Counted from the stretch's first letter, positions 1,251 through 21,348 are shown. The stretch is DNA of 32,000 nucleotides from Candidatus Iainarchaeum sp. (GCA_030688545.1 JAUYHT010000002.1:1-32000); one strand, 5' to 3'. Made by a program: numbers and translations. Notes: generated by a model from the letters alone, not told the origin.

Positions 1251-2474
1251 ATGAGTGTCCGAGAAAGTAAAGGAATAGAACTTGCGAAATCCTCGCTCAT
1301 TGATGAGACGAAGGAAGGTTGAATAGTTTCAAGCCAATCAGACAATCGAAGATATTTTATCAAAAAGGATTTTTCGTGCAACTGCCTTGACCATCAAACT
1401 CGAAATGTGAAATGTAAGCACGCTTATGCTGTTGAATTCTTTTTACAAAAACCAGTTTCCAGAATGCAGTCAATAGTTCAACCTATCCGTGAACCGCGTA
1501 AAACTTATTCTCAAATTTGGCCTGCGTATAACAAAAGTCAAACGAGTGAAAAAGAGTTATTCTTGCAGTTGCTTGCAGACTTAACGAAAAGTGAAAGCGA
1601 GAAACATTTTGGAAGACCCAGTGCAAATATGGGAGAGATGGCATTCTGTTGTGTGTTGAAAGTCTATACTCATTTTTCGACTCGACGTGCAAACACTGAC
1701 ATAAAAGACGCTTTCCAGAAAGGATTAATCGGCACACCGTATCACTATAACACGATTATCAAATATTTTGATGAACCCGAACTTACCAAACTATTACAGA
1801 AGCTAATTTTTCTCTCTGCTTCTCCACTTACAACAGTTGAGAAAAAGTTTGCTATAGATAGTAGTGGATTTAGAACAACTCAGTTTAATGAATACGCGAA
1901 AGAGAAGCACGGAACGAAGAAAGAACATCAATGGGTCAAAGTCCACGTTTTATCTGGGACAAAAACGAATATCATTTGTGCGATTGATATTGGTGAGGAA
2001 AATAGTGGAGACAGTCCACGACTGATTCCTTTGACACAACAAACTTTGGATAATGGTTTCAAAATGGAAGAACTCTCCGGCGATAAAGCATATTCCAGTC
2101 GAGACAATCTCTCATTCTTGAATGATAATGGAGTAATGCCATTCATTCCTTTCAGAAAGAATATGACAGCTAACGCGAAAGGTGGAGGATATATTTGGAA
2201 GAAAATGTATCACTATTTTCATTACAACCAAGAGCAGTTTCTTCAGCATTATCACGCTCGCTCAAATGCAGAGTCTACTTTTCGTATGATTAAGGCAAAA
2301 TTCAACGATACCATTCGTTCCAAGAAGAAAACGGCTCAAACCAATGAAATGCTCAGTAAAATCTTGTGTCACAATATCGTTGTGCTAATCCACGAAATGC
2401 ACGAACTCGGCATTAAACCCGATTTTTGCACACAAAGTCCCTTCGATGCCCACAAAGACGACTTTAAAGGCTAG
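1251..2474 (+). pseudogene. IS4/IS5-like DDE transposase with N-terminal SWIM zinc finger, interrupted by an in-frame TGA at 1320..1322
   Basis: The track ORF 1407..2474 starts at a GTG inside the SWIM finger. The same frame is open from ATG 1251 except for TGA 1320: MSVRESKGIELAKSSLIDETKEG*IVSSQSDNRRYFIKKDFSCNCLDHQTRNVKCKHAYAV (CxC...CxH). The C-terminal part carries SGDKAYSS and YHARSNAESTFRMIKAKF (the Y-x2-R-x3-E-x6-K signature of IS4/IS5 DDE enzymes). Confidence 0.7.
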
Positions 2475-3511
2475 TTAATGGGCAAAGCCCATCCCACCAG
2501 GAGGCCGCCCAGCGCCCCCTGGGCGATAATAAAAATAATGATGGAAATGAGGAATATCCCCGGGGCCCAGCGCACCCCCAAAAGGGGTTTGCCTGACCCA
2601 ATCATTCCCATGAACAAGGAACCCAGGATCGCATTACCAAAGAGCAGGATATAGGCCACGCTCACCAGGAAATCAGGGGTAATTCCAACCGTGCCCCCCA
2701 GAAAACCAACGGCCCCCGCATTGGCAGTGGCAAACGAGGCCTGTCCCTGAATCCGGGAGACCAGACGGATGAACTCCACGGCCACCGCCATGAGGAGGGG
2801 GGTGGCGATCATCATGACGAATCCGACGAAGATGACATAGGTTTTGGTGCTCGTCTGCAATTCCTTCTTCAACTCCTGGGATTGCCTTAATTCAGCCGAG
2901 GTGTTCTCGAGGAGCTGGGCCATCTTTCCCCCGCTTCGTACAGCCTGGAGAAAGAAACGGATGGTCTCATTCAAATTTTTGGATTTAATATTGGAGGTAA
3001 TGCGCGACAAGGCCGAAGCAAATGAATTGACCCCCAACGAACGGGAAGTAACCGTCCTTATTTCCTGGGAGAGCGGACCGAATTCGGGGCGCGCACTGCT
3101 CTTGAACGCCGAAAAGCTCGTCATCCCCGCGCGCACATTTCCAGCGACCAAGAGGAGGAAGTCTGGAAGGATATCTTCCACCATCCTCCGGCGTTTCTCA
3201 ACAAGATAATACAAGTGCCACACCCTCAATCCTAATCCTAACGCGAGACCGGTGATAATTCCTATGCCCGCACTCCATAGTGAAGTAATTTCCCCACCCG
3301 GGAGGAGGGTGGCCAACCAAGCGTTGAGGATACCCACCCCGAGATAAAACAGTATACCCCCGCCCAATCCCCCCAAAAAAACAATCAAAAGGGTTTTGGC
3401 CAACCACGCGTGCCCATCCTCCAAACCGCCTTGACGCGCAGCCTCAGCGACCCGCGTCTGCCATTTGTCAGGAAAAAGACGGACAATCCGGTAGGATAAT
3501 GCGCGCATCAT
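2471..3511 (-). CDS. Type IV pilus platform membrane protein, single T2SSF domain (TadC/FlaJ-like)
   Basis: 346 aa and polytopic. The block EDILPDFLLLVAGNVRAGMTSFSAFKSS...ETIRFFLQAVRSGGKMAQLLENTSAELR is typical of GspF/TadBC/FlaJ domains. An ATGA overlap links it to the upstream gene. Confidence 0.8.
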   Translation of the reverse strand: MMRALSYRIVRLFPDKWQTRVAEAARQGGLEDGHAWLAKTLLIVFLGGLGGGILFYLGVGILNAWLATLLPGGEITSLWSAGIGIITGLALGLGLRVWHLYYLVEKRRRMVEDILPDFLLLVAGNVRAGMTSFSAFKSSARPEFGPLSQEIRTVTSRSLGVNSFASALSRITSNIKSKNLNETIRFFLQAVRSGGKMAQLLENTSAELRQSQELKKELQTSTKTYVIFVGFVMMIATPLLMAVAVEFIRLVSRIQGQASFATANAGAVGFLGGTVGITPDFLVSVAYILLFGNAILGSLFMGMIGSGKPLLGVRWAPGIFLISIIIFIIAQGALGGLLVGWALPIN

Positions 3512-4398
3512 TCTTTGTACCCCGCGGGAATGCGCGTGCCGATGAAACCTATAAGGAGAACTTGGATGATAAAGGCAAACCCGATCGTCATGAAAATAGT
3601 ATCATTTCCCACACTGGTGCCCCCAATAGAAGACAGGATGACCAGGAAGGTGATTCCTATCGTGGGAACGGCGGCGGCGATCAACAGGTAAATAAGGATC
3701 CACATGTTGAGTTCCGCCGCATAATCCTTGATGTGCCGCGACTGGAAATCGGAGAGGGATTGGGAAATGGCTTGTAATGCCGCGCTAACACTGCTTCCTG
3801 TTCGGATGGACGTCACCAGTTGCCACACCACTTTCTTCAAGAAATGGGAATCCGTGCGAAGGGCCAGCCTTTCCAACGCGGCCGCCTCGGTGACACCGGC
3901 ATTGATCTCTTGCACCACGACTTCGAATTCTTCAGAAATATGACCATACCCCGCTCGCGCGACATTGGACATGGCATCATACAACCCCACCCCCGAATTC
4001 ACCTGGATGAGTAAACTCTTGAGGGCATAGGTCAAACTTTGATCCACCTCCACCGCATTCTTCTGGGCTAACAACCGGGGATAAATCAGATGCAACCCCA
4101 ACGCCGACATCCCCGCTACAACTCCGGCAACCACTCCCAATTTGATCCCATTTTCCAACCCCCCATCCGGGGAAATGAAACCAACTCCCAAAAATAGGAG
4201 GCCTAATACCAATGCGTACAATCCGGCTGAAACGAACGCGGCCGCGAGATACGCCTCAGGAGTGATGCGCAAATGGGCATAGCGTAATGAATCCTCCAAA
4301 AAACGAAAAATGCGCAAAAAAGGTCGCGCCGCTCCGGTAACGCGGGAAGGGAGCTTATTCGCCTGCTCCATGGTCAACAGCATAAACCGGACACGCAT
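3508..4398 (-). CDS. Type IV pilus platform membrane protein, single T2SSF domain (TadB/FlaJ-like)
   Basis: 296 aa. It contains YALKSLLIQVNSGVGLYDAMSNVARAGYGHISEEFEVVVQEINAGVTEAAALERLALRT followed by C-terminal TM segments. It starts 9 nt after the ATPase stop. Confidence 0.8.
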   Translation of the reverse strand: MRVRFMLLTMEQANKLPSRVTGAARPFLRIFRFLEDSLRYAHLRITPEAYLAAAFVSAGLYALVLGLLFLGVGFISPDGGLENGIKLGVVAGVVAGMSALGLHLIYPRLLAQKNAVEVDQSLTYALKSLLIQVNSGVGLYDAMSNVARAGYGHISEEFEVVVQEINAGVTEAAALERLALRTDSHFLKKVVWQLVTSIRTGSSVSAALQAISQSLSDFQSRHIKDYAAELNMWILIYLLIAAAVPTIGITFLVILSSIGGTSVGNDTIFMTIGFAFIIQVLLIGFIGTRIPAGYKE

Positions 4399-4407
4399 AC
4401 TATTTAT

Positions 4408-6267
4408 TCACCCCAAACCCAGGGAGGGGTCCATGTCCTGGCGCGCGGCTTCCTTCACCTTATCGGGATCCGCATAGAAGACCTGCATCACTTTTCCCAC
4501 TTGGGAAATATCCCCCCATTTCCGGCGGACCAACCATTCCAATATCATCATCCGATCCTCCACTTCATCCTTGATCTCCCGCTCGGAGAGGCCGGTGTGC
4601 ATATTCAGCTTCTGGATCAACCGCACGGGCTCCGCCACTTTCTCCCACACGTCCTCGCGCGCGGTCCACCTAAACACCTCATTGGTTCCCACGGAAGCCG
4701 TGCCCGTGCCCCCTTCTATCTCGGCAATCTCATAGACCCGGCGCTGATTGGATTTGCGATCGCGGTATTGGACGATAATCAAATCAATCGCTTCCACCTC
4801 CACCGCTGGCACATTCAAAGGGGGCTCGATGAGCCGGCGCAACACCTGACGCGCAGAATCCGCGTGGATGGTGGCATACACACTATGCCCCGTATGCATG
4901 GCCTCAAACAATGTTTCCGCCTCCTCCTGCGTGCGCATCTCCCCCATAACTAATCTGTCTGGTCGCATGCGCAATGACGACACTAATAGGTCGAGCATGG
5001 ACACCTCCCCCGTGCCTTCCGGGTTGGGATTGCGCGTGGTCAAGGGCACCCAATTCCACCGCATGTGCTCGGGGAGATTCAATTCCCTGACATCTTCGAT
5101 AGTAATGATGCGCTGGTGCGCAGGGATGAAGGCAAGTAAGGCATTCAGGGCACTCGTTTTCCCGGAAGCCGTCGAGCCCGCGATGAGAATAGAGAGCTCA
5201 TACTGCATCGCCAGCCATACCCACGCGGCCATCTCGGTGGACATCGTCTTGTCTTCCCCGATGAAATTAATAATTGTCCATGGTTTTCGCGAGAAGCGGC
5301 GAATAGTCAACGTGTTCCCATTGGAAGAAATAGGAAATAGGGTCGCATTCACCCGATCACCCGAGAGCAGGTGGGCATCCAGGATGGGATTCAAATTAGT
5401 AATTTCCCGACCCACCTTTCTTCCTATTTGAGCGGAGAGATTCTGGATATGTTCCTCATTCTGCATTATTAAATTAGTTTTCATCCACCCATACTTGAGA
5501 TGGTATACCGTTACCGGGGATTTGGCGGAGTTGATGGCGATCTCCTCCAGGTTATCATCGGCCCCTAAAATCTCCAATTCCCCCAATCCATAGAGGTTGT
5601 GCAACAACTGCCCGGCCATGGATCCCACTAATTCCTTTCCGAATCCAGGGAGGCGCTTGGCCAATTCTTGTTTGGCAATTTTTCCAAATTGGTGCTTGAG
5701 ATTTTGGGCCTGCTGCACATCCGACAAATCGATGGCTTCAATGGGGATGGCGGCGGCCACGCTATCCCTCAATTCTTCCAACAAGAGTTGGGTATAAGGA
5801 CCAAACGTCTGGACCTGCAATGAGTAAAACGGCCGGTTGTCCCCCACCGCATGGATTATGTTTACCCTGGCTGGAACCTCGTCCGCGGAGAACGCATACT
5901 CCTCCATCACTTCTCCTGCGGGAGGGGGGAGGATATTATCTTCTAATGCCTTTTCCAACGTCACTTTAGGGGATTGGATGAGCGACGCGGGATACGCCAA
6001 CTTCACGATCTCCCGCCGCTCGAACATCTTCAATACCCTTTCTAAGTCTTCGGTTTTCCACCGCGCCTCCCGGGCCAACTGGGACAATAACACCTCTCGC
6101 TTTCCCTGGAGGAGGCGCATGACGGCATCAATCAACAAGGGTCCTTCTCCCGTTTCCACTTGGAAGGATGCTGCCCTGGTCTCCGGAGGGGCTTCCTCCG
6201 GGGAAATAGTATGGGGATACGTGATGGCATCCGCCGATTCCAGCTTCACGGGGGGAATATCCGGCAT
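4408..6267 (-). CDS. FlaI/PilB/VirB11-family secretion ATPase (archaeal type IV pilus assembly ATPase)
   Basis: Walker A is GSTASGKTSALNALL, the Asp box is RIITIEDVRELNL, and Walker B/His box is RPDRLVMGEMRTQEEAETLFEAMHTGHSVYATIHA. The ORF is open up to 6351. However, the TATA box at 6289..6298 sits 29 nt upstream of ATG 6267 (MPDIPPVKLE), and the tRNA begins only 30 nt beyond 6351. Confidence 0.9.
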   Translation of the reverse strand: MPDIPPVKLESADAITYPHTISPEEAPPETRAASFQVETGEGPLLIDAVMRLLQGKREVLLSQLAREARWKTEDLERVLKMFERREIVKLAYPASLIQSPKVTLEKALEDNILPPPAGEVMEEYAFSADEVPARVNIIHAVGDNRPFYSLQVQTFGPYTQLLLEELRDSVAAAIPIEAIDLSDVQQAQNLKHQFGKIAKQELAKRLPGFGKELVGSMAGQLLHNLYGLGELEILGADDNLEEIAINSAKSPVTVYHLKYGWMKTNLIMQNEEHIQNLSAQIGRKVGREITNLNPILDAHLLSGDRVNATLFPISSNGNTLTIRRFSRKPWTIINFIGEDKTMSTEMAAWVWLAMQYELSILIAGSTASGKTSALNALLAFIPAHQRIITIEDVRELNLPEHMRWNWVPLTTRNPNPEGTGEVSMLDLLVSSLRMRPDRLVMGEMRTQEEAETLFEAMHTGHSVYATIHADSARQVLRRLIEPPLNVPAVEVEAIDLIIVQYRDRKSNQRRVYEIAEIEGGTGTASVGTNEVFRWTAREDVWEKVAEPVRLIQKLNMHTGLSEREIKDEVEDRMMILEWLVRRKWGDISQVGKVMQVFYADPDKVKEAARQDMDPSLGLG

Positions 6268-6288
6268 ACGGGGGGAAACCGAATGAAC

Positions 6289-6298
6289 CTTATATAGG
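6289..6298 (-). promoter_or_regulatory. TATA box (minus strand CCTATATAAG) for a leaderless ATPase-platform transcript
   Basis: The first T is 29 nt upstream of ATG 6267, the same spacing seen at about ten other genes in the window. Confidence 0.55.
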
Positions 6299-6381
6299 AT
6301 AACCATTCCTCCGGCAAGCGCCTGCTTTTTATGGGTACCATCCCCCATCATGCTAAATCCAAACGCGGCCCATTCACCCCA

Positions 6382-6464
6382 GCAGGGATGGCAGAGCGGT
6401 CAAATGCGCCGGCCTTGAGAGCCGGAGCCGAAAGGCTACGGGAGTTCGAATCTCCCTCCCTGCG
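6382..6464 (+). tRNA. tRNA-Ser(UGA): tRNA-Ser, anticodon UGA, type II with long variable arm, no encoded CCA
   Basis: Hand-folded as gcaggga/tccctgc acceptor, 3-bp D stem, ccggc-CTTGAGA-gccgg anticodon arm, variable arm agcc-gaaa-ggct, and T arm gggag-ttcgaat-ctccc. Total 83 nt. Confidence 0.9.
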
Positions 6465-6523
6465 CTCGCTTTCGATCGAGCGCCCCGATGTTAGGGGTAC
6501 TGCCACCGCAGTACCCCAGACGC

Positions 6524-6805
6524 TTTTTCGCCAACCTTTTTCTAAAAGGTTGGTTCTGAATCTCCCTCCCTGCGTGGCCCGTTCCGTCGGGCCGCTGCGG
6601 GGTTAGGGCTCCTTGCAGGAGCCCAGACAAATCGTGAAGTATTTTTTCGCCAACCTTTTTCTAAAAGGTTGGTTCTGAATCTCCCTCCCTGCGTGGCCAT
6701 TAGCATAGGCCGCTCGCTCCCGGGGTATTGCGCGGCAATACCCCTTAAGAAAAGATTTTTCGCCAACCTTTTTCTAAAAGGTTGGTTCTGAATCTCTCTC
6801 CCTAC
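6524..6805 (+). repeat. Three tandem units (period 119 and 113 nt), each a T-rich-loop hairpin plus a decayed copy of the last ~22 nt of tRNA-Ser
   Basis: TTTTTCGCCAACCTTTTTCTAAAAGGTTGGTTCTGAATCTCCCTCCCTGCG occurs at 6524..6574 and 6643..6693, with a degraded copy at 6756..6805. Compare the real tRNA end GAGTTCGAATCTCCCTCCCTGCG. Each unit is followed by two further hairpins. Confidence 0.85.
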
Positions 6806-6928
6806 ACTCGCTTTCGATCGAGCGCTCCAAAATAGAGGGGTCGCTTCGCGGTCCTTCGGTTGATAAAGACTTCATCAATTGTTACGAAATAATTTTTGGC
6901 TGCTCGTTCGCGGAGTACATTTAGTCAA

Positions 6929-6965: not shown

Positions 6966-7838
6966 CTACCCCGCCACCCAAATGGTATTCGTGTCCACAT
7001 TGGCATCGATACCCCGGATGGTGAGGTTGAGATCGTATCCTCCGCGGGTGCCATTGATGTCGTTCAGCATGTCCCAGCGCACCGCGTACTTCACTTTGGC
7101 TACTGAGGGGTTGGCGAGGATCATCTGATAGGTGCCCTCCCCTTCTCCCGAGAGGAAACGGATGGAAAACGTATCGTTCCCCCCCATCGGGGGAGAATAG
7201 GTCCAGCTCGCGGTGTAGGACAAATCATAATCCAGGTCATAGATCTCGGTTACGGTTTGAGAAGCATTGGTGTCCCGGTAATGCAGATAGACCCGCACGT
7301 CGGCATCCCCTTCCTCCCCCACCGAGAGAGGAGTGTACGTCCCCGCATTCCGGTCCGCAATCGCATTGATATCAAGGATGAGGGGATGTGTTCTTTCATT
7401 CGAAGCCAAAAGGATGAGCGTATTAGTGTCAAGGGATTGCTTCCATACCAATCCTGTGTCGGTCCGCCCGGTGAGGTTGCCATCGGTCAATGTCTGAGTG
7501 AGACCTAAAGATATGAGCAGGTTTTGGTCCTCTCCAAAAGTAGTGAGGCGGCTCGAATATGCCTGGAGATTCCCATTCAAATCTAATGGAGAGGGAATAA
7601 ATCCATTCATGAAAAGAGACGCATGGGTATCATTCTGGTCGATCCGGAGATGCTGATCTAAAAGGGAATTGAAATCCAAGGAAATATCCTGGGCCACTCG
7701 AAGCGGCCGAAGAAGCGTCCACCCCTCACTTCGATCCACTTGCAACCCAAAAAAATGGGTGGCCATGAGCTGGGCGAATAGGAGAAGGAAGAGCGCCAGG
7801 ACAAAGGTGGCGAAACTCAGGACAAATCCTTTGTTCAT
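6966..7838 (-). CDS. Pilin-like protein with class III (prepilin-type) signal peptide
   Basis: The start at ATG 7838 forms an ATGA overlap with the upstream stop. The N-terminus is MNKG/FVLSFATFVLALFLLLFAQL. The track ORF extends to 7871. Confidence 0.75.
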   Translation of the reverse strand: MNKGFVLSFATFVLALFLLLFAQLMATHFFGLQVDRSEGWTLLRPLRVAQDISLDFNSLLDQHLRIDQNDTHASLFMNGFIPSPLDLNGNLQAYSSRLTTFGEDQNLLISLGLTQTLTDGNLTGRTDTGLVWKQSLDTNTLILLASNERTHPLILDINAIADRNAGTYTPLSVGEEGDADVRVYLHYRDTNASQTVTEIYDLDYDLSYTASWTYSPPMGGNDTFSIRFLSGEGEGTYQMILANPSVAKVKYAVRWDMLNDINGTRGGYDLNLTIRGIDANVDTNTIWVAG

Positions 7839-8275
7839 CCGGATGGCCATGCCGTCACCTCCACCACCCAAAAATTAGCATCCGGGGGAGTAGGGACGAT
7901 GAATCCATGACGCACGCGCTCCACCCCCGCGGTCTGGAGCACGCACCCGGTTTTGGTGACGATGAACGCGGCGATATTCGAATCCGGAGAAGAGAACACC
8001 TGCACACTCCCGCACAATGTGGCGGGCCACGCGTCGATAACCGAACGAATAGGAGTTGTATTGTCGAGGATAACCCCCTCCTGGAGCAATTGTCCCTGTT
8101 CCAAAGCAAACGCCGCTCGGGTGACCAATTCACGTAAAACGGTTTGGTTCTCCAATCCAGTGCCCGGGGTATTTATAGTTTCAAACGCCAGCCCCACTAA
8201 CGCGAAAAGGATGGCGAGCGCCAGCAGCGCATCGGTGGCGATGACGAATCCATTTTGAGACCAAAGCAATACCAT
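7835..8275 (-). CDS. Pilin-like protein with class III-type N-terminus
   Basis: ATG 8275 lies 1 nt after the upstream TAA. The N-terminus is MVLLWSQNG/FVIATDALLALAILFALVGL. The track ORF extends to 8341 across the upstream gene. Confidence 0.7.
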   Translation of the reverse strand: MVLLWSQNGFVIATDALLALAILFALVGLAFETINTPGTGLENQTVLRELVTRAAFALEQGQLLQEGVILDNTTPIRSVIDAWPATLCGSVQVFSSPDSNIAAFIVTKTGCVLQTAGVERVRHGFIVPTPPDANFWVVEVTAWPSG

Positions 8276-8276
8276 A

Positions 8277-8774
8277 TTACTCCCCCCACACCTGGAGGAT
8301 GGCCACCACGTTCTCGCCCGCATACACGGTGGGAATGACAATCACATTCACCTGGTTCACATCCACGGGGGCGGTGCCGGCCTGGGAGAGGGTTTGACGG
8401 TTGGTATCCTGCAAAGTAATGTAGAAGTTAACATCGGGGATACGCAGGGCCGTTTTGAGGCTGGGGTAATCATCCCCATTCCAATCCCGCAAGGCCGCCC
8501 ATTTGGAGGAGGAAATTTGCATGCCATTCTCGATCAACCCCACACTCGTAATACCATTCCGGTCAGACAGATGATCCCAATACACCGGGTTCCCGGGGCT
8601 TCCGAATAAGGCCTGCGCGACTCCCTCTGCCCGACGCGCGGATTGAAACCTAAGGATTTGATCCACGGCCTGCTGTTCCAATTGGGATGAGAGCAAGGCG
8701 ATCATGGTCAAGGCGAATAGAAAGATGGTGATGGCGAGGAGGGCGTCCGAACTATACAATTGTCCTTTTCTCAT
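8277..8774 (-). CDS. Pilin-like protein with class III signal peptide
   Basis: The N-terminus is MRKG/QLYSSDALLAITIFLFALTMIALL. An ATGA overlap links it to the upstream gene. Confidence 0.8.
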   Translation of the reverse strand: MRKGQLYSSDALLAITIFLFALTMIALLSSQLEQQAVDQILRFQSARRAEGVAQALFGSPGNPVYWDHLSDRNGITSVGLIENGMQISSSKWAALRDWNGDDYPSLKTALRIPDVNFYITLQDTNRQTLSQAGTAPVDVNQVNVIVIPTVYAGENVVAILQVWGE

Positions 8775-9139
8775 GAGGATCCCCTCATCCAGAAATACCC
8801 ATATTCATCCTTTCCCGCCTCGAAAAAGTTTCCATCGGCGATTCCTGTTCCAAGCCATGTAGTATCCATCACGGGAGCAGAAGCATACGCCCGGGTACTC
8901 CGTACCTCCACCACTCCATTCTGCACGATAATGGTTTGAGGTTCAAGCGAGGGAGGAAGAAACACTCGCACCTCACTCCCGGGCGGACCTAACCCTATTC
9001 CATTCACGGTAAGCGCCACCTCCTGAGCGGCCCTCTGGGCCTCATGCTGTATTTGGAGGGCATCGATGGAGATGATTTGCTGGCCGAATAATGAAATAGC
9101 AATCCCGAGGATGATGAGGAGTAAAGGAAGAACGAGCAT
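8771..9139 (-). CDS. Pilin-like protein; the canonical ATG is at 9139, but the class III motif is encoded upstream of it (to 9178)
   Basis: The frame continues upstream to the TGA of the preceding gene: TGA-ATC-CCT-CCT-CTT-CGG-AAG-GCG-CAA-GCC-ACT-ATT-GAG-ATC-ATG, which reads IPPLRKA/QATIEIMLVLPLLLIILGIAISLF. No ATG, GTG or TTG is available between 9140 and 9178. Confidence 0.65.
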   Translation of the reverse strand: MLVLPLLLIILGIAISLFGQQIISIDALQIQHEAQRAAQEVALTVNGIGLGPPGSEVRVFLPPSLEPQTIIVQNGVVEVRSTRAYASAPVMDTTWLGTGIADGNFFEAGKDEYGYFWMRGSS

Positions 9140-9178: not shown

Positions 9179-11698
9179 TCAGACCCCTCCCAATGAAATA
9201 TGCTGGTCGAAAATCGCATTCATATCCGAAAACCCTTGGAATAAATCCAGATGAAGTCGCGTGGGGGAAGGGATATGGACTGCGTTTCCATCATAGCGGT
9301 AATTCGAATTGATGATGGTGGTAGAGAGGAGATTGATGCCTAACGAAAATGGATAACTAGGATCTCCCACATAATTGGGCGCCGAACCTGGCACGCCCGG
9401 GGTGTTTGCCACCGGATACCACACTCTCACGTCCCGCAGGCGCGTGCTGTTAAAGCCGAGGGTGACAATGTACGTATTATTGGCATTCGTGTCATCGGCA
9501 ATACGGAGATGCACATTCTTGTCTCCGCTTGATGAAACGAATTTGGTGAGGAGAAATTGGTTCACATCTGGCATGGATAAGGGAGGGGTGCCCGCATAGG
9601 TTCGAGCGAAAGGGATGATGTCAAAATCTCCCAGGGAATACCTGAAAGTATTTCGCGGCCGCGCCACGGGGGAGTTGGAAAAGCCACTATTGTTATCCGC
9701 CTCATCCAAGAAGACGAGAGAGAAATAATAGTCCAATCCCGCATTGAGATCTGTTACCAGTATTGTCCCCGCGGATCCCCCCTGGAGAAAAGGGCCATTG
9801 AATGAAAAACTGTTGGCGGCATCGAATTGAGCTGGGGTGGCGATGGAGGTGGGGGAATATTTCACGACAGCACTGGAAACAGTCCCCGAGTAATTATCAT
9901 CCCCCGGATACGTGAATCGGAGGAGTACCGATTCGGCGTCCGAACCGGATTCGGCGGTGAAATTGAGCACGCTTCCCGGAGGCGTAATATCTTGCGCGCA
10001 CCCGGATCCCAATATTGTTCCCGTGTATTGGGTGCCATCCCCAAATGAAACAACAGGTTGAAACTGCTCATTCTCATCCGAGATGACCGAACTGAAGAGT
10101 ATCTCATTGTCTGAAAGAACACCGGATGCGGAGAGAGTGACATCGCTCACGTCCAATTCATCCCCATCTCCTCCACTTCCCGAAAAGACAGTGTTGCCGT
10201 CGATGACCAGGGTATTCACCACCCCCCTCTCAGTATCGCAGTTCCACCACCGCTGAAGGATAATCGAGGAGATGACTAGGGGTTGGCTGCCCGTGTTACG
10301 AAGGGTAAACCCATCCACGATAGATTCTTCCGCGGTGGCCCCGCTCCAATCCCACTGAAAATAGGCGCTTCCCCCATTAACTTGGACTTCCACCCCCAGG
10401 ATGAGGTGGTTGGCTCCCGTGAAATCAGTGATCGAAACGCTCCCCGTATACAACCCCAAATCAGTTCCACCGGGTACCGTCACCTCCACGTTTACATTTT
10501 GGCACGATTGGGCCGAAAGAGATGATATGATGGAAATGGGCGTAATCCAGTCACCCGCGTTCCCGGAGGAGGGGGTGAAGGATAAGTTGGTGAGGGGAGT
10601 TTGGCCCACGTTGCAAAGCTGGAGGGTCAGGGAATTGGTATCTGCTCCCAGGGTAGAAAAACGCAAAACGGAAGGAACAGACGTGAGCAACCCCTGCGTA
10701 TTGGGAAACACCTCCACATTCACTGGAATAGTTATTGATTCCGGGGTGCCGCTGATGTCCGCATTCATGGTAAGATACCCCACGTAATTCCCAATGGCAG
10801 TGGATTCCGAATAAAAATTCAGGTCCACGTTTTGGGATTCCCCCGGAGAGAGGGTAAAGACCGAAGGTCCAATGGATGCATCCACTAATGTATGGTCCCA
10901 CGTCCACACCAATACTGTATCCGCATCCTGCGTCCCCGTGTTTGAAAAAACCACCCGCGCACTGGCATTGGCATCCCGGGGCATCGCCACATACACGCTA
11001 TCCACATCACTCGTCACTGTTGAGAGGCTGATGAGAACGGAATCCGCATCAGACACTAACCGAAAACGGACTAACCCGGGTTGGCTTGGAATCGTCCCGC
11101 GCAGGGAAGGAATGGCTGTCCCTGCGATTTGGAAATCATACACCTGGAGGATGATGGATCGTCCTTCCAAACGTGAACGGGACGAATCAACCCCCCGCGG
11201 CCAGGGGATGATAATATCACGTGTATTCCCGGGCCCCAAAGAATATACCTCATCGATTTCCCGGATTAACCGTTGCACCCCCTCCTGACCTAACCGAATG
11301 GCATGCTGTTTTTCCACTCGGGAAACCTGGTTCACCGTAAAATCCACGAGCGCCGCCAGCAACACCAATGAGATGGCGAGCACGATCAATAATTCCACGC
11401 TGCTCTGCCCGGCCGTTTTCGTCCGGCCGCCCCGAGGGACGAGGGAGGTCTTTGACCTCCCAGCAGCCAAAACGATTGGTTTCCTTCCGATGCACGCTCT
11501 CGATCGTGCGCTCCGATGGATGAGGGGGATTTTCAATCCCCCGGCGGCCGAATCAATGGGTTTCATTCCAAAGCACGCTTTCGATCGGTCAAATCGACTT
11601 CGATATTTTTTACGAAAAGGATGATTACTTTTGATTGAGCGCTTCAAGGGTCGAAGAGGATTTTCTACCCCCTGACGGCCATGACTTCTATTTGTCAT
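9179..11698 (-). CDS. Giant pilin-headed surface protein (class III signal, Ig/CARDB-like repeats, FN3-like domain), paralog B
   Basis: The cleavage-type motif TAG/QSSVELLIVLAISLVLLAALV is encoded at about 11410. The ORF is open to ATG 11698 (ATGA overlap with paralog A). Alternative starts are ATG 11566 and TTG 11470. TTG 11470 gives the leader MAAGRSKTSLVPRGGRTKTAG, which parallels paralog A. There are four conserved Cys. Confidence 0.8.
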   Translation of the reverse strand: MTNRSHGRQGVENPLRPLKRSIKSNHPFRKKYRSRFDRSKACFGMKPIDSAAGGLKIPLIHRSARSRACIGRKPIVLAAGRSKTSLVPRGGRTKTAGQSSVELLIVLAISLVLLAALVDFTVNQVSRVEKQHAIRLGQEGVQRLIREIDEVYSLGPGNTRDIIIPWPRGVDSSRSRLEGRSIILQVYDFQIAGTAIPSLRGTIPSQPGLVRFRLVSDADSVLISLSTVTSDVDSVYVAMPRDANASARVVFSNTGTQDADTVLVWTWDHTLVDASIGPSVFTLSPGESQNVDLNFYSESTAIGNYVGYLTMNADISGTPESITIPVNVEVFPNTQGLLTSVPSVLRFSTLGADTNSLTLQLCNVGQTPLTNLSFTPSSGNAGDWITPISIISSLSAQSCQNVNVEVTVPGGTDLGLYTGSVSITDFTGANHLILGVEVQVNGGSAYFQWDWSGATAEESIVDGFTLRNTGSQPLVISSIILQRWWNCDTERGVVNTLVIDGNTVFSGSGGDGDELDVSDVTLSASGVLSDNEILFSSVISDENEQFQPVVSFGDGTQYTGTILGSGCAQDITPPGSVLNFTAESGSDAESVLLRFTYPGDDNYSGTVSSAVVKYSPTSIATPAQFDAANSFSFNGPFLQGGSAGTILVTDLNAGLDYYFSLVFLDEADNNSGFSNSPVARPRNTFRYSLGDFDIIPFARTYAGTPPLSMPDVNQFLLTKFVSSSGDKNVHLRIADDTNANNTYIVTLGFNSTRLRDVRVWYPVANTPGVPGSAPNYVGDPSYPFSLGINLLSTTIINSNYRYDGNAVHIPSPTRLHLDLFQGFSDMNAIFDQHISLGGV
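11410..11590. repeat. Three tandem 81-nt copies of the two-hairpin module, upstream of or overlapping the 5' end of paralog B
   Basis: Hairpins are cggccg-ttttcgtc-cggccg (11410..11429) with ggaggtc-ttt-gacctcc (11444..11460), then gcacg-ctctcgat-cgtgc (11492..11509) with gggggat-tttca-atccccc (11524..11542). A partial copy, gcacgctttcgatcggtc, lies at 11573..11590. Confidence 0.8.
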
Positions 11699-14046
11699 AC
11701 GTCACTTCCCCCAGTATCATAAGGGTCGGTCCCCTCGGTCATATTATGGCTCATGTTGAAGTCAATTATCCCCAAAACTACATCCAAATACAGGTCATTA
11801 GGCACCCCCATTCCCACACGGATGCCATTATATCTCCGATTAGAAGGAAATTCGATGGAGTCGATGAGATCTACCCCGCCCGATATCGGGAGGGACTTGG
11901 CAGTGTCATAATTAGCGCTAGTGGACAGATAATTGGCCGGTGCCGGGTACCAAAAACGGACGCGGTTGATGTCAGTCGCATTCATGTCCACGGCAGCGGC
12001 CCATACATTTCCGGTGTTCACATCTTCCACTATGCGGAAGGCGATCCGGGCAAAAGTTACGGCGTCCCCTAATTGGATTTGATGAAGGCGCATTTTATTG
12101 ACATCACTAATCCCAACAGGAGTGGAACTCCCAGGATAGGAACTAGCGAAATAGCTGAAATTGAAATCCCCTCCCGTGAAACGGTATTCGTTCCATGGGC
12201 GTTGCTTGGGGGAATTGGATAACCCACTCATGTTTCCATTCTCGTCCTCAAAGCGGATGGACCAATAACGTGAAAGTCCGGCCATCTGATCGGCGACCAC
12301 GAAAGAGCCAGCGGTTCCTCCTGCTGGGAGGGGAAGGGGGCCGGGCCATGTCAGAGTAGTGGCTCCGTTCCAATCCACCTCCGAATCAATTACTGCCTCA
12401 CTCTTCTTGAGGGTAGCATACACGGCATTCCCAGTGTAGTTGTCGTCCCCCGGATAAGTGAAAGTAATGGCCACGGTGCCCGGCTCCGCACCGGGAACCA
12501 CTATCAAATCCGTCACCGTGGCGGGAGGCGTTACATCACCTGTGCATCCCGGACCAAAGGACGCGCTCGTGTATTCCGACCCATCTGAAAAGGTGACTAC
12601 CGCGCGGAAAGTCTCATTATCATCCTGGATGTTATCGTTGAAAACCAAGGTGTTATCCGAATAGGAGGTCAGCACGGGCAGGGTAACATCTGAAGTATCA
12701 GCTGTGTTTCCGTCCTGGAGGCTTCCTGAGAAGATAACCCCCCCATCCACTTCCATCTGTTCCCAATAGGAATGGGAAAGATCGCATTGCCACCAATCCT
12801 GCAATTTGACATGGGTGAAGGTGATGGGTTTCCCGCCTCGATTAGTCAATGTATAACCCGTAATGGCATTCACCGTTTTTCCCCCCGTGGTCCAATCCCA
12901 ATCGAAGAAGGCGCTCATTCCCAATACGGAGAGAGCGACCGGAATAGTCAAGGTATGGCTGCCCGTGAAATCGGAGAGGAAAAGCGACCCATAGTAGGTG
13001 CCCAACCCCGCGTCAGGGACGTGGGCCACAAGGTCAAAATTGGTGCAGGATTGGGCACTCAAAACAGGGAGGGTGGGTAGGCCCTCCAACCAATCTCCTG
13101 GGTCCCCAGAGGAAGGGGTGAAGGTGAGGGATTGGATGTCCGAATCCCCCACATTGCATAATTGGATGGCGACGCTATTGGTATCCGCGCCGAAGGTGCT
13201 CATCTCCACCGAAGCAGGAAAAGCCACGAGAGGGGAGCCCTGGCCCACGAGAACGCTGGTGCTCAGAGGGAGGCGCAGCGTCTCGGTGTTTCCTGGAAAA
13301 GTCGCGGTAATTGAAAGCATCCCCGTATAGGTCCCCACGGCCGTGGCCCCACTTGAAAAATTGACGTCGAAGGGAAACGTGGCATTCCCTAGGATGGTTC
13401 CTCCTGAAGGAAAAACGATCCCATTCATGTCCACGTGATTAAAATCCATGGCCATAACCAGGGAAGCATCCTCGTCCGACGAATTAGTTAGGGTTACACG
13501 TACGCTCGCATCCTCATTCCGGAGCAACGTCACATGGACCCGAGAAGGGTCCCCCGTTAATCGGGCGTCCCCCAAAAGGACATATCCCTCAAACGCTTTC
13601 ACTCGGAAGAACTGATTGCCCGAATGGGAAGGGAGGGAACCCGCGAGAAAAGGAATGGTTTCCCGTGCGATCTGGGAATCATACACTTGCACCACTATCG
13701 CATGATTTCCAACATACGTGTCAGAAGCATTAACCCCCTCCGGCCACACTAATTGGATTTGGCGCGTGGCCCCCGGGCCTTGGGCATACACCTCTTCTAC
13801 CGCTCGGGCGATGTTTTCCAATGCTAACTCTCCTGTCTTTATATCGCGCTGTTTCTGGAGCGCGCTGATCTGGTCGGCCGTGAACGCCACGAGCACCGCG
13901 AGGATGACCAACCCCGCCGCGAAAAGGACAAGGACTTCTACGCTGCTCTGCCCGCACGCTCTCGATCGTGCGCTCCGATGGACGAGGGGATTCTTCGAAT
14001 CCCCGGCGGCCGCCATTGCTGATTTCAATCGTGCGTCCGCGTCCAT
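11695..14046 (-). CDS. Giant pilin-headed surface protein, paralog A
   Basis: The signal is ...NPLVHRSARSRACG/QSSVEVLVLFAAGLVILAVLVAF. ATG 14046 is 29 nt downstream of the TATA box at 14068..14077. Other possible ATGs are 14061 and 14016. It aligns with paralog B along its whole length, for example FGADTNS..QLCNVG, FTPSSG..GDW, SAQSC, TPP...FTYPGDDNY.G. Confidence 0.85.
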   Translation of the reverse strand: MDADARLKSAMAAAGDSKNPLVHRSARSRACGQSSVEVLVLFAAGLVILAVLVAFTADQISALQKQRDIKTGELALENIARAVEEVYAQGPGATRQIQLVWPEGVNASDTYVGNHAIVVQVYDSQIARETIPFLAGSLPSHSGNQFFRVKAFEGYVLLGDARLTGDPSRVHVTLLRNEDASVRVTLTNSSDEDASLVMAMDFNHVDMNGIVFPSGGTILGNATFPFDVNFSSGATAVGTYTGMLSITATFPGNTETLRLPLSTSVLVGQGSPLVAFPASVEMSTFGADTNSVAIQLCNVGDSDIQSLTFTPSSGDPGDWLEGLPTLPVLSAQSCTNFDLVAHVPDAGLGTYYGSLFLSDFTGSHTLTIPVALSVLGMSAFFDWDWTTGGKTVNAITGYTLTNRGGKPITFTHVKLQDWWQCDLSHSYWEQMEVDGGVIFSGSLQDGNTADTSDVTLPVLTSYSDNTLVFNDNIQDDNETFRAVVTFSDGSEYTSASFGPGCTGDVTPPATVTDLIVVPGAEPGTVAITFTYPGDDNYTGNAVYATLKKSEAVIDSEVDWNGATTLTWPGPLPLPAGGTAGSFVVADQMAGLSRYWSIRFEDENGNMSGLSNSPKQRPWNEYRFTGGDFNFSYFASSYPGSSTPVGISDVNKMRLHQIQLGDAVTFARIAFRIVEDVNTGNVWAAAVDMNATDINRVRFWYPAPANYLSTSANYDTAKSLPISGGVDLIDSIEFPSNRRYNGIRVGMGVPNDLYLDVVLGIIDFNMSHNMTEGTDPYDTGGSDV
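13954..14004. repeat. Single copy of the two-hairpin module, lying inside the leader-peptide codons of paralog A
   Basis: gcacg-ctctcgat-cgtgc (13954..13971), linker gctccgatggacga, then ggggattc-ttc-gaatcccc (13986..14004). The hairpin-1 region and linker (about 35 nt) are nearly identical to the 11492..11542 copy, while the hairpin-2 stem differs. Confidence 0.8.
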
Positions 14047-14067
14047 GGGCTGACAACCCATCCCGGG

Positions 14068-14100: not shown

Positions 14101-14156
14101 GAACCCTTTTGAAAAGGGTTCATCGAAATTTTGATCAAACTTTTTCCAAAAGTTTG
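14101..14156. repeat. Two near-perfect palindromes with T/A-rich centres, between the small membrane gene and the pilin promoter
   Basis: gaacccttt-tg-aaagggttc lies at 14101..14121 and caaactttt-tcc-aaaagtttg at 14136..14156. They are of the same type as ccaaccttttt-ct-aaaaggttgg in the tRNA-Ser array. Confidence 0.7.
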
Positions 14157-14290
14157 AAGTTCGATCAAAAAGGTAATACCTCGCCCTTCAGGACGACATG
14201 CGTCCCTCCATAGTGGCGAGCACAAGTAGCGAGAGTGGATGACGTTTCCTAACCGTTGGATACCCCGGCTTTTAGGCCCCCAAGAGGGTG

Positions 14291-15497: not shown

Positions 15498-15557
15498 ATT
15501 AACAGCTAACTTACCAAGTTTAATAACATTTCGAAATATCTGAACTGATTATACTAG

Positions 15558-15641
15558 CGCAGGGAACGAGATTCGAACTCGTGCCTCCGTGAGGAGACCG
15601 GCTTTCCAGACCGGCGCGTTAGACCACTCCGCCATCCCTGC
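15558..15641 (-). tRNA. tRNA-Ser(GGA): tRNA-Ser, anticodon GGA, type II
   Basis: The reverse complement folds as gcaggga acceptor, ccggt-CTGGAAA-gccgg anticodon arm, variable arm ctcc-tcac-ggag, and T arm acgag-ttcgaat-ctcgt. Total 84 nt. Confidence 0.9.
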
Positions 15642-20921: not shown

Positions 20922-21166
20922 GTCCAGTTTCGATTGGACCAACCGAGGGTCTACCGAGGGATTTTCAATCCCTCGATAAATCAATTAAAACAATGGCCCT
21001 TTAGCTCAGCAGTCCAATTTCGTTTGGACCAACCGAGGGACATCCCCGTGGGGTTTTTCAAACCCACGATAGATCAATTAAGCCATGGCCCCGCAACTGG
21101 CCCGTTTCGGCGGCACGCTTTCGCGCGTGCAGGACGAGGGACTACAATGGGGGTTTAACAACCCCC
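20922..21166 (+). repeat. Three tandem two-hairpin modules (first two with a 90-nt period) interleaved with decayed copies of the tRNA-Arg 5' end
   Basis: Unit 1 is gtcca-gtttcgat-tggac (20922..20939) with cgagggatt-ttc-aatccctcg (20955..20975). Unit 2 is gtcca-atttcgtt-tggac (21012..21029) with cgtgggg...cccacg (21047..21068). Unit 3 is gcacgc-tttcgc-gcgtgc (21113..21130) with gggggtt-taac-aaccccc (21149..21166). The tRNA 5' relics are ggccctttagctcagc (20995..21010) and ggccccg (21087..21093). Confidence 0.8.
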
Positions 21167-21191
21167 AGTAGGCCTGAATTAGGAAAGTGCC

Positions 21192-21266
21192 GGCCCCGTA
21201 GCTCAGCCTGGATAGAGCAACTGCCTTCTAAGCAGGAGGTCGAGGGTTCAAATCCCTCCGGGGCCG
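21192..21266 (+). tRNA. tRNA-Arg(UCU): tRNA-Arg, anticodon UCU
   Basis: Folds as ggccccg/cggggcc acceptor, gctc/gagc D stem, CTTCTAA anticodon loop, and gaggg-ttcaaat-ccctc T arm. Total 75 nt. Confidence 0.9.
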
Positions 21267-21348
21267 TAGAAATGAAAAAATACTCTAGCTACCAAAATCA
21301 ACCTACCCATTGAAACAGCCTTAGAATTAACGAAAAATCGGGGCATTG

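Follow-up and report, generated by a model that had tools for sequence, protein, structure and literature searches.

What makes up the repeat array behind the tRNA-Ser(UGA) gene of Candidatus Iainarchaeum sp.? We analyzed a stretch of 32,000 nucleotides from this archaeon (GCA_030688545.1 JAUYHT010000002.1:1-32000, C4:1-32000 in our contig numbering), referred to below as the window, which belongs to a genome of 1.13 Mb in 9 contigs that is 96% complete (coded G000) and is shown to be archaeal by its 16S and RNase P RNAs. In the window, an intact tRNA-Ser(UGA) gene is followed by a short array of repeats that include pieces of the tRNA itself. A first, sequence-only reading had offered two origins for this array: the scars of repeated integration and excision by an integrase, or a miniature non-autonomous element multiplying at this one site. 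The best reading of the results presented here is that the array consists of three tandem copies of a gene-less family, which we call archaeal tRNA-linked repeats, rather than of ordinary virus-integration scars. We found no report of modules of this kind in archaea in the literature that was searched.

The array behind tRNA-Ser(UGA)

The tRNA-Ser(UGA) gene is intact and lies on the plus strand at 6382-6464 (end at 6464/5), as located by ARAGORN and Rfam (60.4 bits). Its T-stem 5' strand occupies 6440-6444, its T-loop (TTCGAAT) 6445-6451, and its last 13 nt (tRNA positions 61-73, hereafter the tail) 6452-6464. Behind it stand three units of 113-119 nt, all on the same strand and built in the same order: a hairpin A, a hairpin B (GGGG...CCCC), a short linker, a run of five or six T followed by CG, a 23-nt hairpin, the octamer TTCTGAAT, and a 13-nt copy of the tail. 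Hairpin A starts directly behind the discriminator base, and the final 2-3 nt of the tail pair with it. The T-run, CG, and 23-nt hairpin together are termed the T-run/hairpin element, and TTCTGAAT, which reads TTC-T-GAAT and is one base longer than the T-loop of the tRNA, is termed the T-loop look-alike.

Directly behind the tRNA, the stem of hairpin A1 (GCGCTCG-cTTTCGAT-CGAGCGC, 6462-6483) begins within the final 3 nt of the gene; it is the same trailer hairpin as that behind tRNA-Ser(UGA) in other species of the genus. It is followed by hairpin B1 (GGGGTACTGC-cacc-GCAGTACCCC, 6494-6517), by the first T-run/hairpin element (T5, CG, and the hairpin CCAACCTTTT-tct-AAAAGGTTGG, 6524-6553), and by the look-alike (6554-6561) with tail copy 1 (CTCCCTCCCTGCG, 6562-6574), which agrees with the tRNA at 13 of 13 positions. 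The trailer of unit 1 (6575-6624) holds hairpins A2 (6575-6595) and B2 (6606-6624). Next come the second T-run/hairpin element (6642-6672), with a run of six T, the look-alike with tail copy 2 (6673-6693, again 13/13), and the trailer of unit 2 (6694-6744) with hairpins A3 (6694-6713) and B3 (6722-6744). The third T-run/hairpin element (6756-6785) leads into a look-alike with tail copy 3 (CTCTCTCCCTACA, 6786-6806), in which the tail has 3 mismatches. At the right end stand what would be the original trailer (6807-6857), composed of hairpin A1' (6807-6825), identical to A1 at 19 of 19 positions, and a weak hairpin B4 (6837-6857), and a T5 run (6893-6897) that is probably the original terminator of the tRNA gene.

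Repeat searches agreed closely with the sequence-only description of the array. A 56-nt direct repeat was found at 6524-6579, 6643-6698, and 6756-6811, at spacings of 119 and 113 nt; copies 1 and 2 agree at every position (100%), whereas the third has 88% identity with them, its three changes all lying within the tail, which matches the two near-identical copies and one degraded copy noted earlier. The 33-nt direct repeats previously seen at the tRNA 3' end, with 30 of 33 positions identical, were also confirmed and form the core of an outer 39-nt repeat (6448-6486 and 6790-6828, 90% identity). The 23-nt hairpin CCAACCTTTTTCTAAAAGGTTGG occurs three times, versus 0.00 times expected from 100 shuffles, and in an RNA fold of 6382-6830 all the predicted hairpins were formed (z = -9.6 versus shuffles). 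Tandem Repeats Finder reported nothing on the array because the sequence separating the repeats varies too strongly from unit to unit, and the tRNA was the only match of Rfam at permissive thresholds. The three mechanically called open reading frames (ORFs) overlapping the array had no Pfam match, and the earlier statement that it carries no cargo therefore stands.

A family of modules and its turnover

A census of the genome gave 47 tRNA genes, and 15 modules of this kind stand behind 11 of them, directly 3' and on the same strand, with 1-3 per locus: Ser(UGA) (three), Ser(CGA), Gln(CUG) (two), Gln(UUG), Lys(UUU), Lys(CUU), Leu(UAG), Trp, Ile(GAU), Pro(CGG), and Pro(UGG). Partial forms occur at Leu(CAA) and Leu(UAA). 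The idea of a miniature element multiplying at Ser(UGA) thus fits much better than integration scars but was drawn too narrowly. The tail copies of this genome match the local tRNA in all cases, and each is followed by an A-type hairpin right after the discriminator base, like a real tRNA. The last tail is mostly without a following T-run/hairpin element, these elements number the tails minus one, and the A and B hairpins differ between units.

Blocks shared by different tRNA loci are 90-93% identical, and the homology ends exactly where the tail begins. Hairpin B1 and the T-run/hairpin element next to it share 93% identity over 83 nt with the tRNA-Leu(CAA) trailer (C4:143853-143935); A2 and B2 recur behind the real tRNA-Leu(CAG) (C4:229140, 90% over 80 nt); and B2 with its T-run/hairpin element recurs in the tRNA-Ser(CGA) module (90% over 118 nt). 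A 78% identical relative of the unit 2 trailer lies inverted just 5' of tRNA-Ala(CGC) (C3:2267-2356).

The tail, the look-alike, and the identity beyond the tRNA end were scored in 23 distinct modules from 10 genomes. The tail agrees with the local tRNA at 13 of 13 positions in 18 of the 23 modules and has 1-2 mismatches in 5. The look-alike, GTTC-Y(1-2)-GAAT, still ends in GAAT in 8 of the 10 modules whose tRNA loop reads TTCAAAT, and it therefore belongs to the module and is not copied locally. Consequently, the earlier interpretation of the whole fragment as a copy of the T-loop and acceptor 3' strand is right for the 13-nt tail and wrong for the longer T-loop part, which is the module's own. 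Identity past the tRNA end extends over 0-2 nt in 15 modules, over 5-9 nt in 6, and, in a single tandem case, over the entire unit; in the outer repeat of the window it covers 19-22 nt (hairpin A1). The right junction is therefore fixed and the left one variable. Every copy in every genome examined is free of cargo and measures 45-190 nt.

The modules are patchily distributed among the 17 species of the genus that were compared (G000 and 16 others). G012, G003, and G007 lack modules at the syntenic Ser(UGA) locus, where G010 has one, G011 has two, and G000 has three; copy number is not conserved among relatives, as the sequence-only reading had implied. The two modules of G011 belong to other hairpin subtypes, and the convergent neighbor gene of the tRNA is kept in the congeners with an alignable downstream region (G012, G007, and G010). 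One subtype can be found at different tRNAs, and one tRNA can have different subtypes. A strict pattern gave 10 matches in G000 and 0-2 in each of the 16 congeners, and the modules have evidently spread within G000 in a recent burst. A looser pattern, for which the reversed pattern served as a control and stayed at chance level and from which matches in coding DNA were discarded, located modules in 9 of the 17 species and, once its matches had been inspected, in a further two families of the phylum (G121 and G186). The tRNAs concerned in that scan include Ser, Leu, Gln, Lys, Pro, Trp, Ile, Arg, Ala, Asn, and Met. Furthermore, the exact 19-mer AAAAGGTTGGTTCTGAATC, followed each time by the local tail, was found behind tRNA-Pro, tRNA-Gln (twice), and tRNA-Glu (two tandem units) in two "Methanosarcinales" metagenome-assembled genomes (MAGs), and behind tRNA-Val of a Woesearchaeota MAG. 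The claim of a presence across phyla is weakened for the former because these MAGs (records L057, L058, and L071, titled "uncultured Methanosarcinales archaeon") measure 0.9-1.3 Mb and gave no match to mcrA; the label may be mistaken, or much may be missing from the bins.

The T-run/hairpin element has about 78 oriented copies in G000, 74 of them in intergenic DNA. In 32 cases the flanking genes are convergent, and 55 of the 74 face the 3' end of a gene on the opposite strand, often within 15 nt. The stems co-vary around a conserved T(4-7)-CY-A(4-7) core, and some variants have GNRA loops. In variants with an internal C in the T-tract (Ile and Trp of G000, L023, L017, L057, and L071), the upstream pyrimidine tract mirrors the 5' arm of the hairpin in 6 of 6 cases, covering four C positions. 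Such a mirror tract is the requirement of a parallel third strand in a Y*R-Y triplex, and the element could form a pyrimidine-purine-pyrimidine triplex. The same hairpins are flush with the 5' ends of tRNA-Ala(GGC), Leu(GAG), Leu(UAA), and Ile(GAU), and there are generic hairpins followed by TTTTGAT, which resembles a T-loop. At the 3' end of the 5S rRNA (C3:126430-126520), two family hairpins in reverse orientation (hairpin, ATC, A-run) are also flush with the gene, and there is no copy of the 5S end. Because of its placement at gene 3' ends, tRNA 5' ends, and the 5S rRNA, the element looks like a general terminator or 3'-end element, or like a selfish palindrome of the repetitive extragenic palindrome (REP) type. 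A main role as a tRNA promoter was rejected, since TATA-like boxes (CTTTTTAT/CTTTTATAA) lie 35-60 nt 5' of most tRNAs and the hairpins cluster at gene 3' ends.

Origin of the modules

The explanation that we prefer, and to which we would give an even chance, is that a gene-less module was inserted behind tRNA genes with duplication of the tail. A module consists of optional A and B hairpins (GC hairpins of the trailer type), the T-run/hairpin element, its own T-loop look-alike, and the 13-nt tail of the upstream tRNA; it would enter directly behind the tRNA gene, and the tail would be duplicated in the process. Through this duplication, the tRNA gene would stay intact and the older tail would be displaced downstream. 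Two routes can be envisaged: a target duplication by a staggered cut anchored at the T-loop, or an att-type recombination over an identity block that starts right after the T-loop. Three successive insertions would produce the Ser(UGA) array, leaving the decayed tail and the original trailer A1'-B4 at the right end. This end does appear to be old because A1'-B4 aligns with the trailer of module-free congeners better than the tRNA-proximal A1-B1, and because tail copy 3, which is probably the oldest, displaced tail, retains the CTCTC T-stem strand of the congeners. Insertion is favored over slippage because the A and B hairpins differ while the T-run/hairpin element and tail are identical, because of the count of elements relative to tails, and because relatives of the unit parts stand at other tRNAs. 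The spread of the family over many tRNA genes, its turnover between species and burst in G000, its occurrence in MAGs of other phyla, and the precedent of the tRNA-linked repeats of Escherichia coli speak for the same explanation. Two one-gene cassettes, at Ser(CGA) and Gln(UUG), share the right-end signature of the modules and tie the empty modules to the cassette accretion at the Tyr, Glu, and Thr tRNAs, so the process may carry cargo too.

Several observations weigh against this explanation. The length of the duplication is not fixed, ranging from 13 to about 36-39 nt (the latter in the outer repeat of the window), which disfavors the rigid stagger of a transposase. The repeat search found no terminal inverted repeats in the module, only internal hairpins, and there is no sign of an antisense guide or of an inverted copy of the tail, as the longest complement of a module to its own tRNA averages 5.04 nt versus 4.93 nt in mismatched pairs. 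Cas1, Y1/HUH transposases (PF01797), and reverse transcriptase were not found in the 96%-complete genome, and the three large tyrosine recombinases that it encodes adjoin tRNA-Cys, tRNA-Arg(TCG), and the second tRNA-Gly, none of them being at the array. Neither an excised or free form nor a pair of empty and filled sites within one species was seen. For the att-type route, a double-stranded circle of 60-120 bp would be physically awkward, and the many tails that go with one subtype are a weakness. Additionally, a functional, selected origin is an alternative.

A bolder form of the insertional explanation, which we regard as possible but doubtful, is that the modules are an undescribed gene-less mobile DNA that homes behind any tRNA through its own T-loop look-alike, with duplication of the 13-nt tail by an enzyme that is host-encoded or unrecognized. 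The triplex-forming hairpin would then be recognized either by that enzyme or by the transcription or 3'-end machinery.

It is rather unlikely, in our judgment, that the modules are functional RNA units, comparable to RrA, RrB, and RrF of Escherichia coli and co-transcribed with the tRNA by read-through, a view that is compatible with an insertional origin. The 5' end of such an RNA would come from the cut at the tRNA 3' end and its 3' end from a like cut after the tail copy, and the triplex-capable hairpin would act as a terminator, as a stabilizer of the 3' end, or as both, by a logic like that of MALAT1. The A-type hairpin placed exactly after the discriminator base at every tail copy, as at the real tRNA, speaks for this view, as do the same hairpins flush with four tRNA 5' ends and the 5S rRNA 3' end, the pyrimidine mirror in all six variants, the GNRA loops of some hairpin variants, and the 55 of 74 elements that face the end of a convergent gene. 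The repeated 3' end of RrB in E. coli has likewise been proposed as a processing signal (PMC8144298). However, patchy presence and fast turnover at orthologous tRNAs are unlike an important function, a run of five or six T lies inside each unit ahead of the hairpin, and the tail by itself is unable to build the acceptor/T-arm helix required by RNase Z or RNase P.

Classic attL/attR scars, the first proposal of the sequence-only reading, are improbable. Larger elements with an integrase would have entered the T-loop region repeatedly and lost their cargo, leaving two ends behind. Direct repeats of a tRNA 3' segment with the intact tRNA at one end are indeed the usual footprint of such events, and G000 has kilobase-sized arrays flanked by tRNA fragments (Tyr, Glu, and Thr) and three tyrosine recombinases adjacent to tRNAs. 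Moreover, two one-gene cassettes, at Ser(CGA) (760 nt) and Gln(UUG) (956 nt), finish in ..TGAATC and a tail, the same right-end signature as the modules. Nevertheless, the junction of T-run and hairpin is conserved and its parts co-vary as one structure; because the two form a single conserved unit, they are not the two ends of a larger deleted element. All copies lack cargo at 45-190 nt, and one hairpin subtype serves many tails. As copies of an att site, positions 61-73 are faithful, but the T-loop part has 1-2 extra bases and shows GAAT even with a local loop of AAAT; a crossover 3' of the loop is possible.

The enzyme and partner site expected for such scars were not found either. There is no integrase in or near the array, and the four tyrosine recombinases of G000, one Xer-sized and three larger and Xer-like (C3:439205, C4:412819, and C6:103886), lie elsewhere. 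A scan of IMG/VR for the hairpin with the look-alike gave 17 chance matches in coding DNA. Limited, exact-match searches gave no match to the Ser tail in IMG/VR and 0 for the exact Ser module in metagenome contigs. The integrative element with a matching att sequence anticipated by the sequence-only reading, or any attP partner, is thus absent as far as the genome, IMG/VR, and metagenome contigs were searched, and no autonomous element using the same site was found in G000, its relatives, or these collections.

A local tandem duplication, in which replication slipped or switched templates from the T-loop (GGTTCGAAT) to the similar stretch behind a terminator hairpin or the reverse, with no element or enzyme involved, is very improbable. 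It could draw on the tandem units with identical trailers at Pro(CGG) of G000 and Glu(CUC) of L071 (47 nt of continued identity), on the generic hairpins followed by T-loop-like TTTTGAT, and on the ease with which triplex- and hairpin-forming DNA stalls. Yet the three Ser(UGA) units have unrelated A and B hairpins with an identical T-run/hairpin element and tail, other tRNA loci hold relatives of unit parts at 90-93% identity, most final tails have no hairpin element behind them, and GAAT against the local AAAT is unaccounted for. Simple slippage was rejected for the Ser(UGA) array on account of its differing A and B hairpins and their relatives elsewhere. A split, permuted, or T-loop-intron tRNA was rejected in view of the intact tRNA upstream and the run of five or six T in each unit.

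Described systems and related loci

The nearest described system is the family of tRNA-linked repeats (TLRs) of E. coli, reportedly described by Egan and Landy in 1978 and by Rudd in 1999. To our knowledge, no origin or general function has been accepted for these repeats since 1978. They comprise 22 units at ten loci (1-5 at each), and every unit closes with the final 18-19 bp of the tRNA or rRNA upstream; their function is not established except for RrA, RrB, and RrF, small RNAs that bind Hfq and CsrA (Stenum et al. 2021, PMC8144298). At tyrT/tyrV of strain MG1655, we found 19-nt tail copies (positions 58-76) every 178 nt. In both systems, gene-less units follow tRNA or rRNA genes immediately, 1-5 in tandem, with the same orientation and at many loci, and every unit closes with a copy of the 3' end of the gene upstream, a copy that starts in or just after the T-loop. 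In contrast, the archaeal units are shorter (45-190 nt) and built on the T-run/AT-cored hairpin and a look-alike with 1-2 extra pyrimidines, their tail has 13 nt without CCA, and their trailers are shuffled between loci and turn over rapidly between species. The likeness is one of design and not necessarily of descent, and kinship at the sequence level is not expected.

Elements that integrate into tRNA genes leave direct att repeats, and their integrase-less derivatives are the cis-mobilizable elements (CIMEs), which accrete in tandem. The archaeal array resembles these in that the insert lies between two copies of a tRNA 3' segment, the gene is intact, the units are stacked with the oldest furthest away, and recombination genes are lacking. 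Unlike them, its inserts measure only 45-190 nt and have no integrase, cognate element, or cargo, the T-loop part is non-local, and one subtype serves many tRNAs. Casposons offer another comparison: at the 3' end of tRNA-Pro of Aciduliprofundum boonei, one has produced a duplication of fixed length (15 bp), only 5 bp of it within the tRNA, and has terminal inverted repeats, Cas1, and PolB (PMC5137440). The T-loop region as a target landmark and a short duplication immediately downstream are shared features, whereas the archaeal module has neither terminal inverted repeats nor Cas1, and its duplication is variable and begins at position 61.

REP elements and bacterial interspersed mosaic elements (BIMEs) are mobilized by RAYT (HUH-Y1) transposases, and REPs do not copy the end of the neighboring gene. 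As a short extragenic palindrome with about 78 copies, often tandem and mostly between convergent genes, the T-run/hairpin element is similar to them; it differs in that G000 has no Y1 transposase, the loop is conserved while the stems co-vary, and the gene end is copied. The 3' ends of MALAT1 and MEN-beta combine a U-A-U triple helix with a tRNA-like RNase P substrate behind it. The parallel lies in logic only, a triplex-capable U/U/A element flush with a tRNA or tRNA-like piece, since the archaeal A-tract lies within a hairpin and the tRNA piece, a 3' half-strand, is unable to fold by itself. An integron cassette array was rejected because the large recombinases scored 33-77 bits against integrase_gron, below its cut-off of 265, and because the repeats are not attC-like imperfect palindromes spanning the unit ends. 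A CRISPR array was rejected because the tRNA tail is part of the repeat, the hairpin pairs that take the place of "spacers" are also found at other tRNAs, and there is no Cas1.

An archaeal family that follows TLR logic suggests a general, overlooked way for tRNA genes to collect small passengers. If the modules were homing mobile DNA, they would parasitize tRNA genes without a protein of their own, in parallel with the bacterial TLRs, and could explain the origin of the latter; if the triplex-capable hairpin acted in RNA 3'-end formation, it would be a new type of archaeal terminator or stabilizer. The family supplies many natural filled and empty sites for work on mechanism. For annotation, it accounts for many "tRNA fragments" and hairpin-dense gaps of DPANN genomes and cautions that not every repeat at a tRNA end is a prophage scar.

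The array does separate the pilin genes from those of the ATPase and platform, as the first reading stated. On its left lie a T2SSE-family ATPase (4408-6351, minus strand) and, after it, two T2SSF platform genes (3508-4398 and 2471-3511), which are adjoined by an ORF for a DDE_Tnp_1 (IS4/IS5-type) transposase (1407-2474, plus strand). On its right lie four small genes (6966-9139, minus strand), which open with pilin-like N-termini resembling class III signals, e.g., MRKGQLYSSDALLAITIFLFAL, the 3' end of the last one facing the array. Two more AT-cored family hairpins (14101-14157) stand just 3' of a 788-aa gene (11695-14061), and the tRNAs Ser(GGA) (15557-15641) and Arg(UCU) (21191-21267) of the window have no module.

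The two one-gene cassettes share their loci with modules. At L004 (C3:10851-11919), tRNA-Ser(CGA) is followed by the 760-nt cassette, a decayed tail copy, and then a mini-module with a perfect tail; the cassette contains a 184-aa ORF on the opposite strand with no Pfam or NCBIfam match, and its ends of about 30 bp resemble inverted repeats. At C4:259495-260627, tRNA-Gln(UUG) is followed by a mini-module and the 956-nt cassette, whose ORF (about 290 aa, minus strand) has a CxxxCxxC motif and is radical-SAM-like; this cassette ends in half a hairpin, CTGAATC, and a tail copy.

A mirror-image case occurs at tRNA-Ser(GCU) (C4:139739-139946), where a T-run/hairpin element is flush with a copy of the first 19 nt of the tRNA (CGGGGTTGGCAGAGTGGTC), two hairpins come next, and the intact tRNA begins 82 nt further; judging by this case, 5' tRNA ends can also be duplicated beside the hairpin. 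At L086 (G007:C144, ~3076-3093), a tRNA-Met-like body (positions ~21-52) is combined with a trailer, a T-run/hairpin element, a look-alike, and a single tail, with no second tail and no clear 5' part, which would make it a fragment in decay or else a module in an intron-like form.

With regard to the recombinase-adjacent tRNAs, the element bearing an integrase at tRNA-Cys (C4:412069-413650) has a probable attR at C6:8700-8760, GTTCTAATCACGGCCCCCGCT with a similar trailer, whose position near the start of C6 suggests that C6 begins next to where C4 ends. Likely att partners of the second tRNA-Gly are found at C9:10435 and C2:84586. A hairpin-rich segment of about 70 nt (GCACGC..GCGTGC, GGGGGTTTAACAACCCCC, AGTAGGCCTGAATTAG) forms the 5' leader of tRNA-Arg(UCU) in the window (~21120-21190) and of tRNA-Ile(UAU) (C4:~205090-205158) and is also present inside the Ser(CGA) array (C3:~10990-11060). 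Finally, at C3:250540-250770, a hairpin-rich element of about 142 nt that ends in a T-run/hairpin lies between 37-nt direct repeats of non-tRNA sequence; it has relatives in tandem at C3:181860-182350 and others on C2 and C6.

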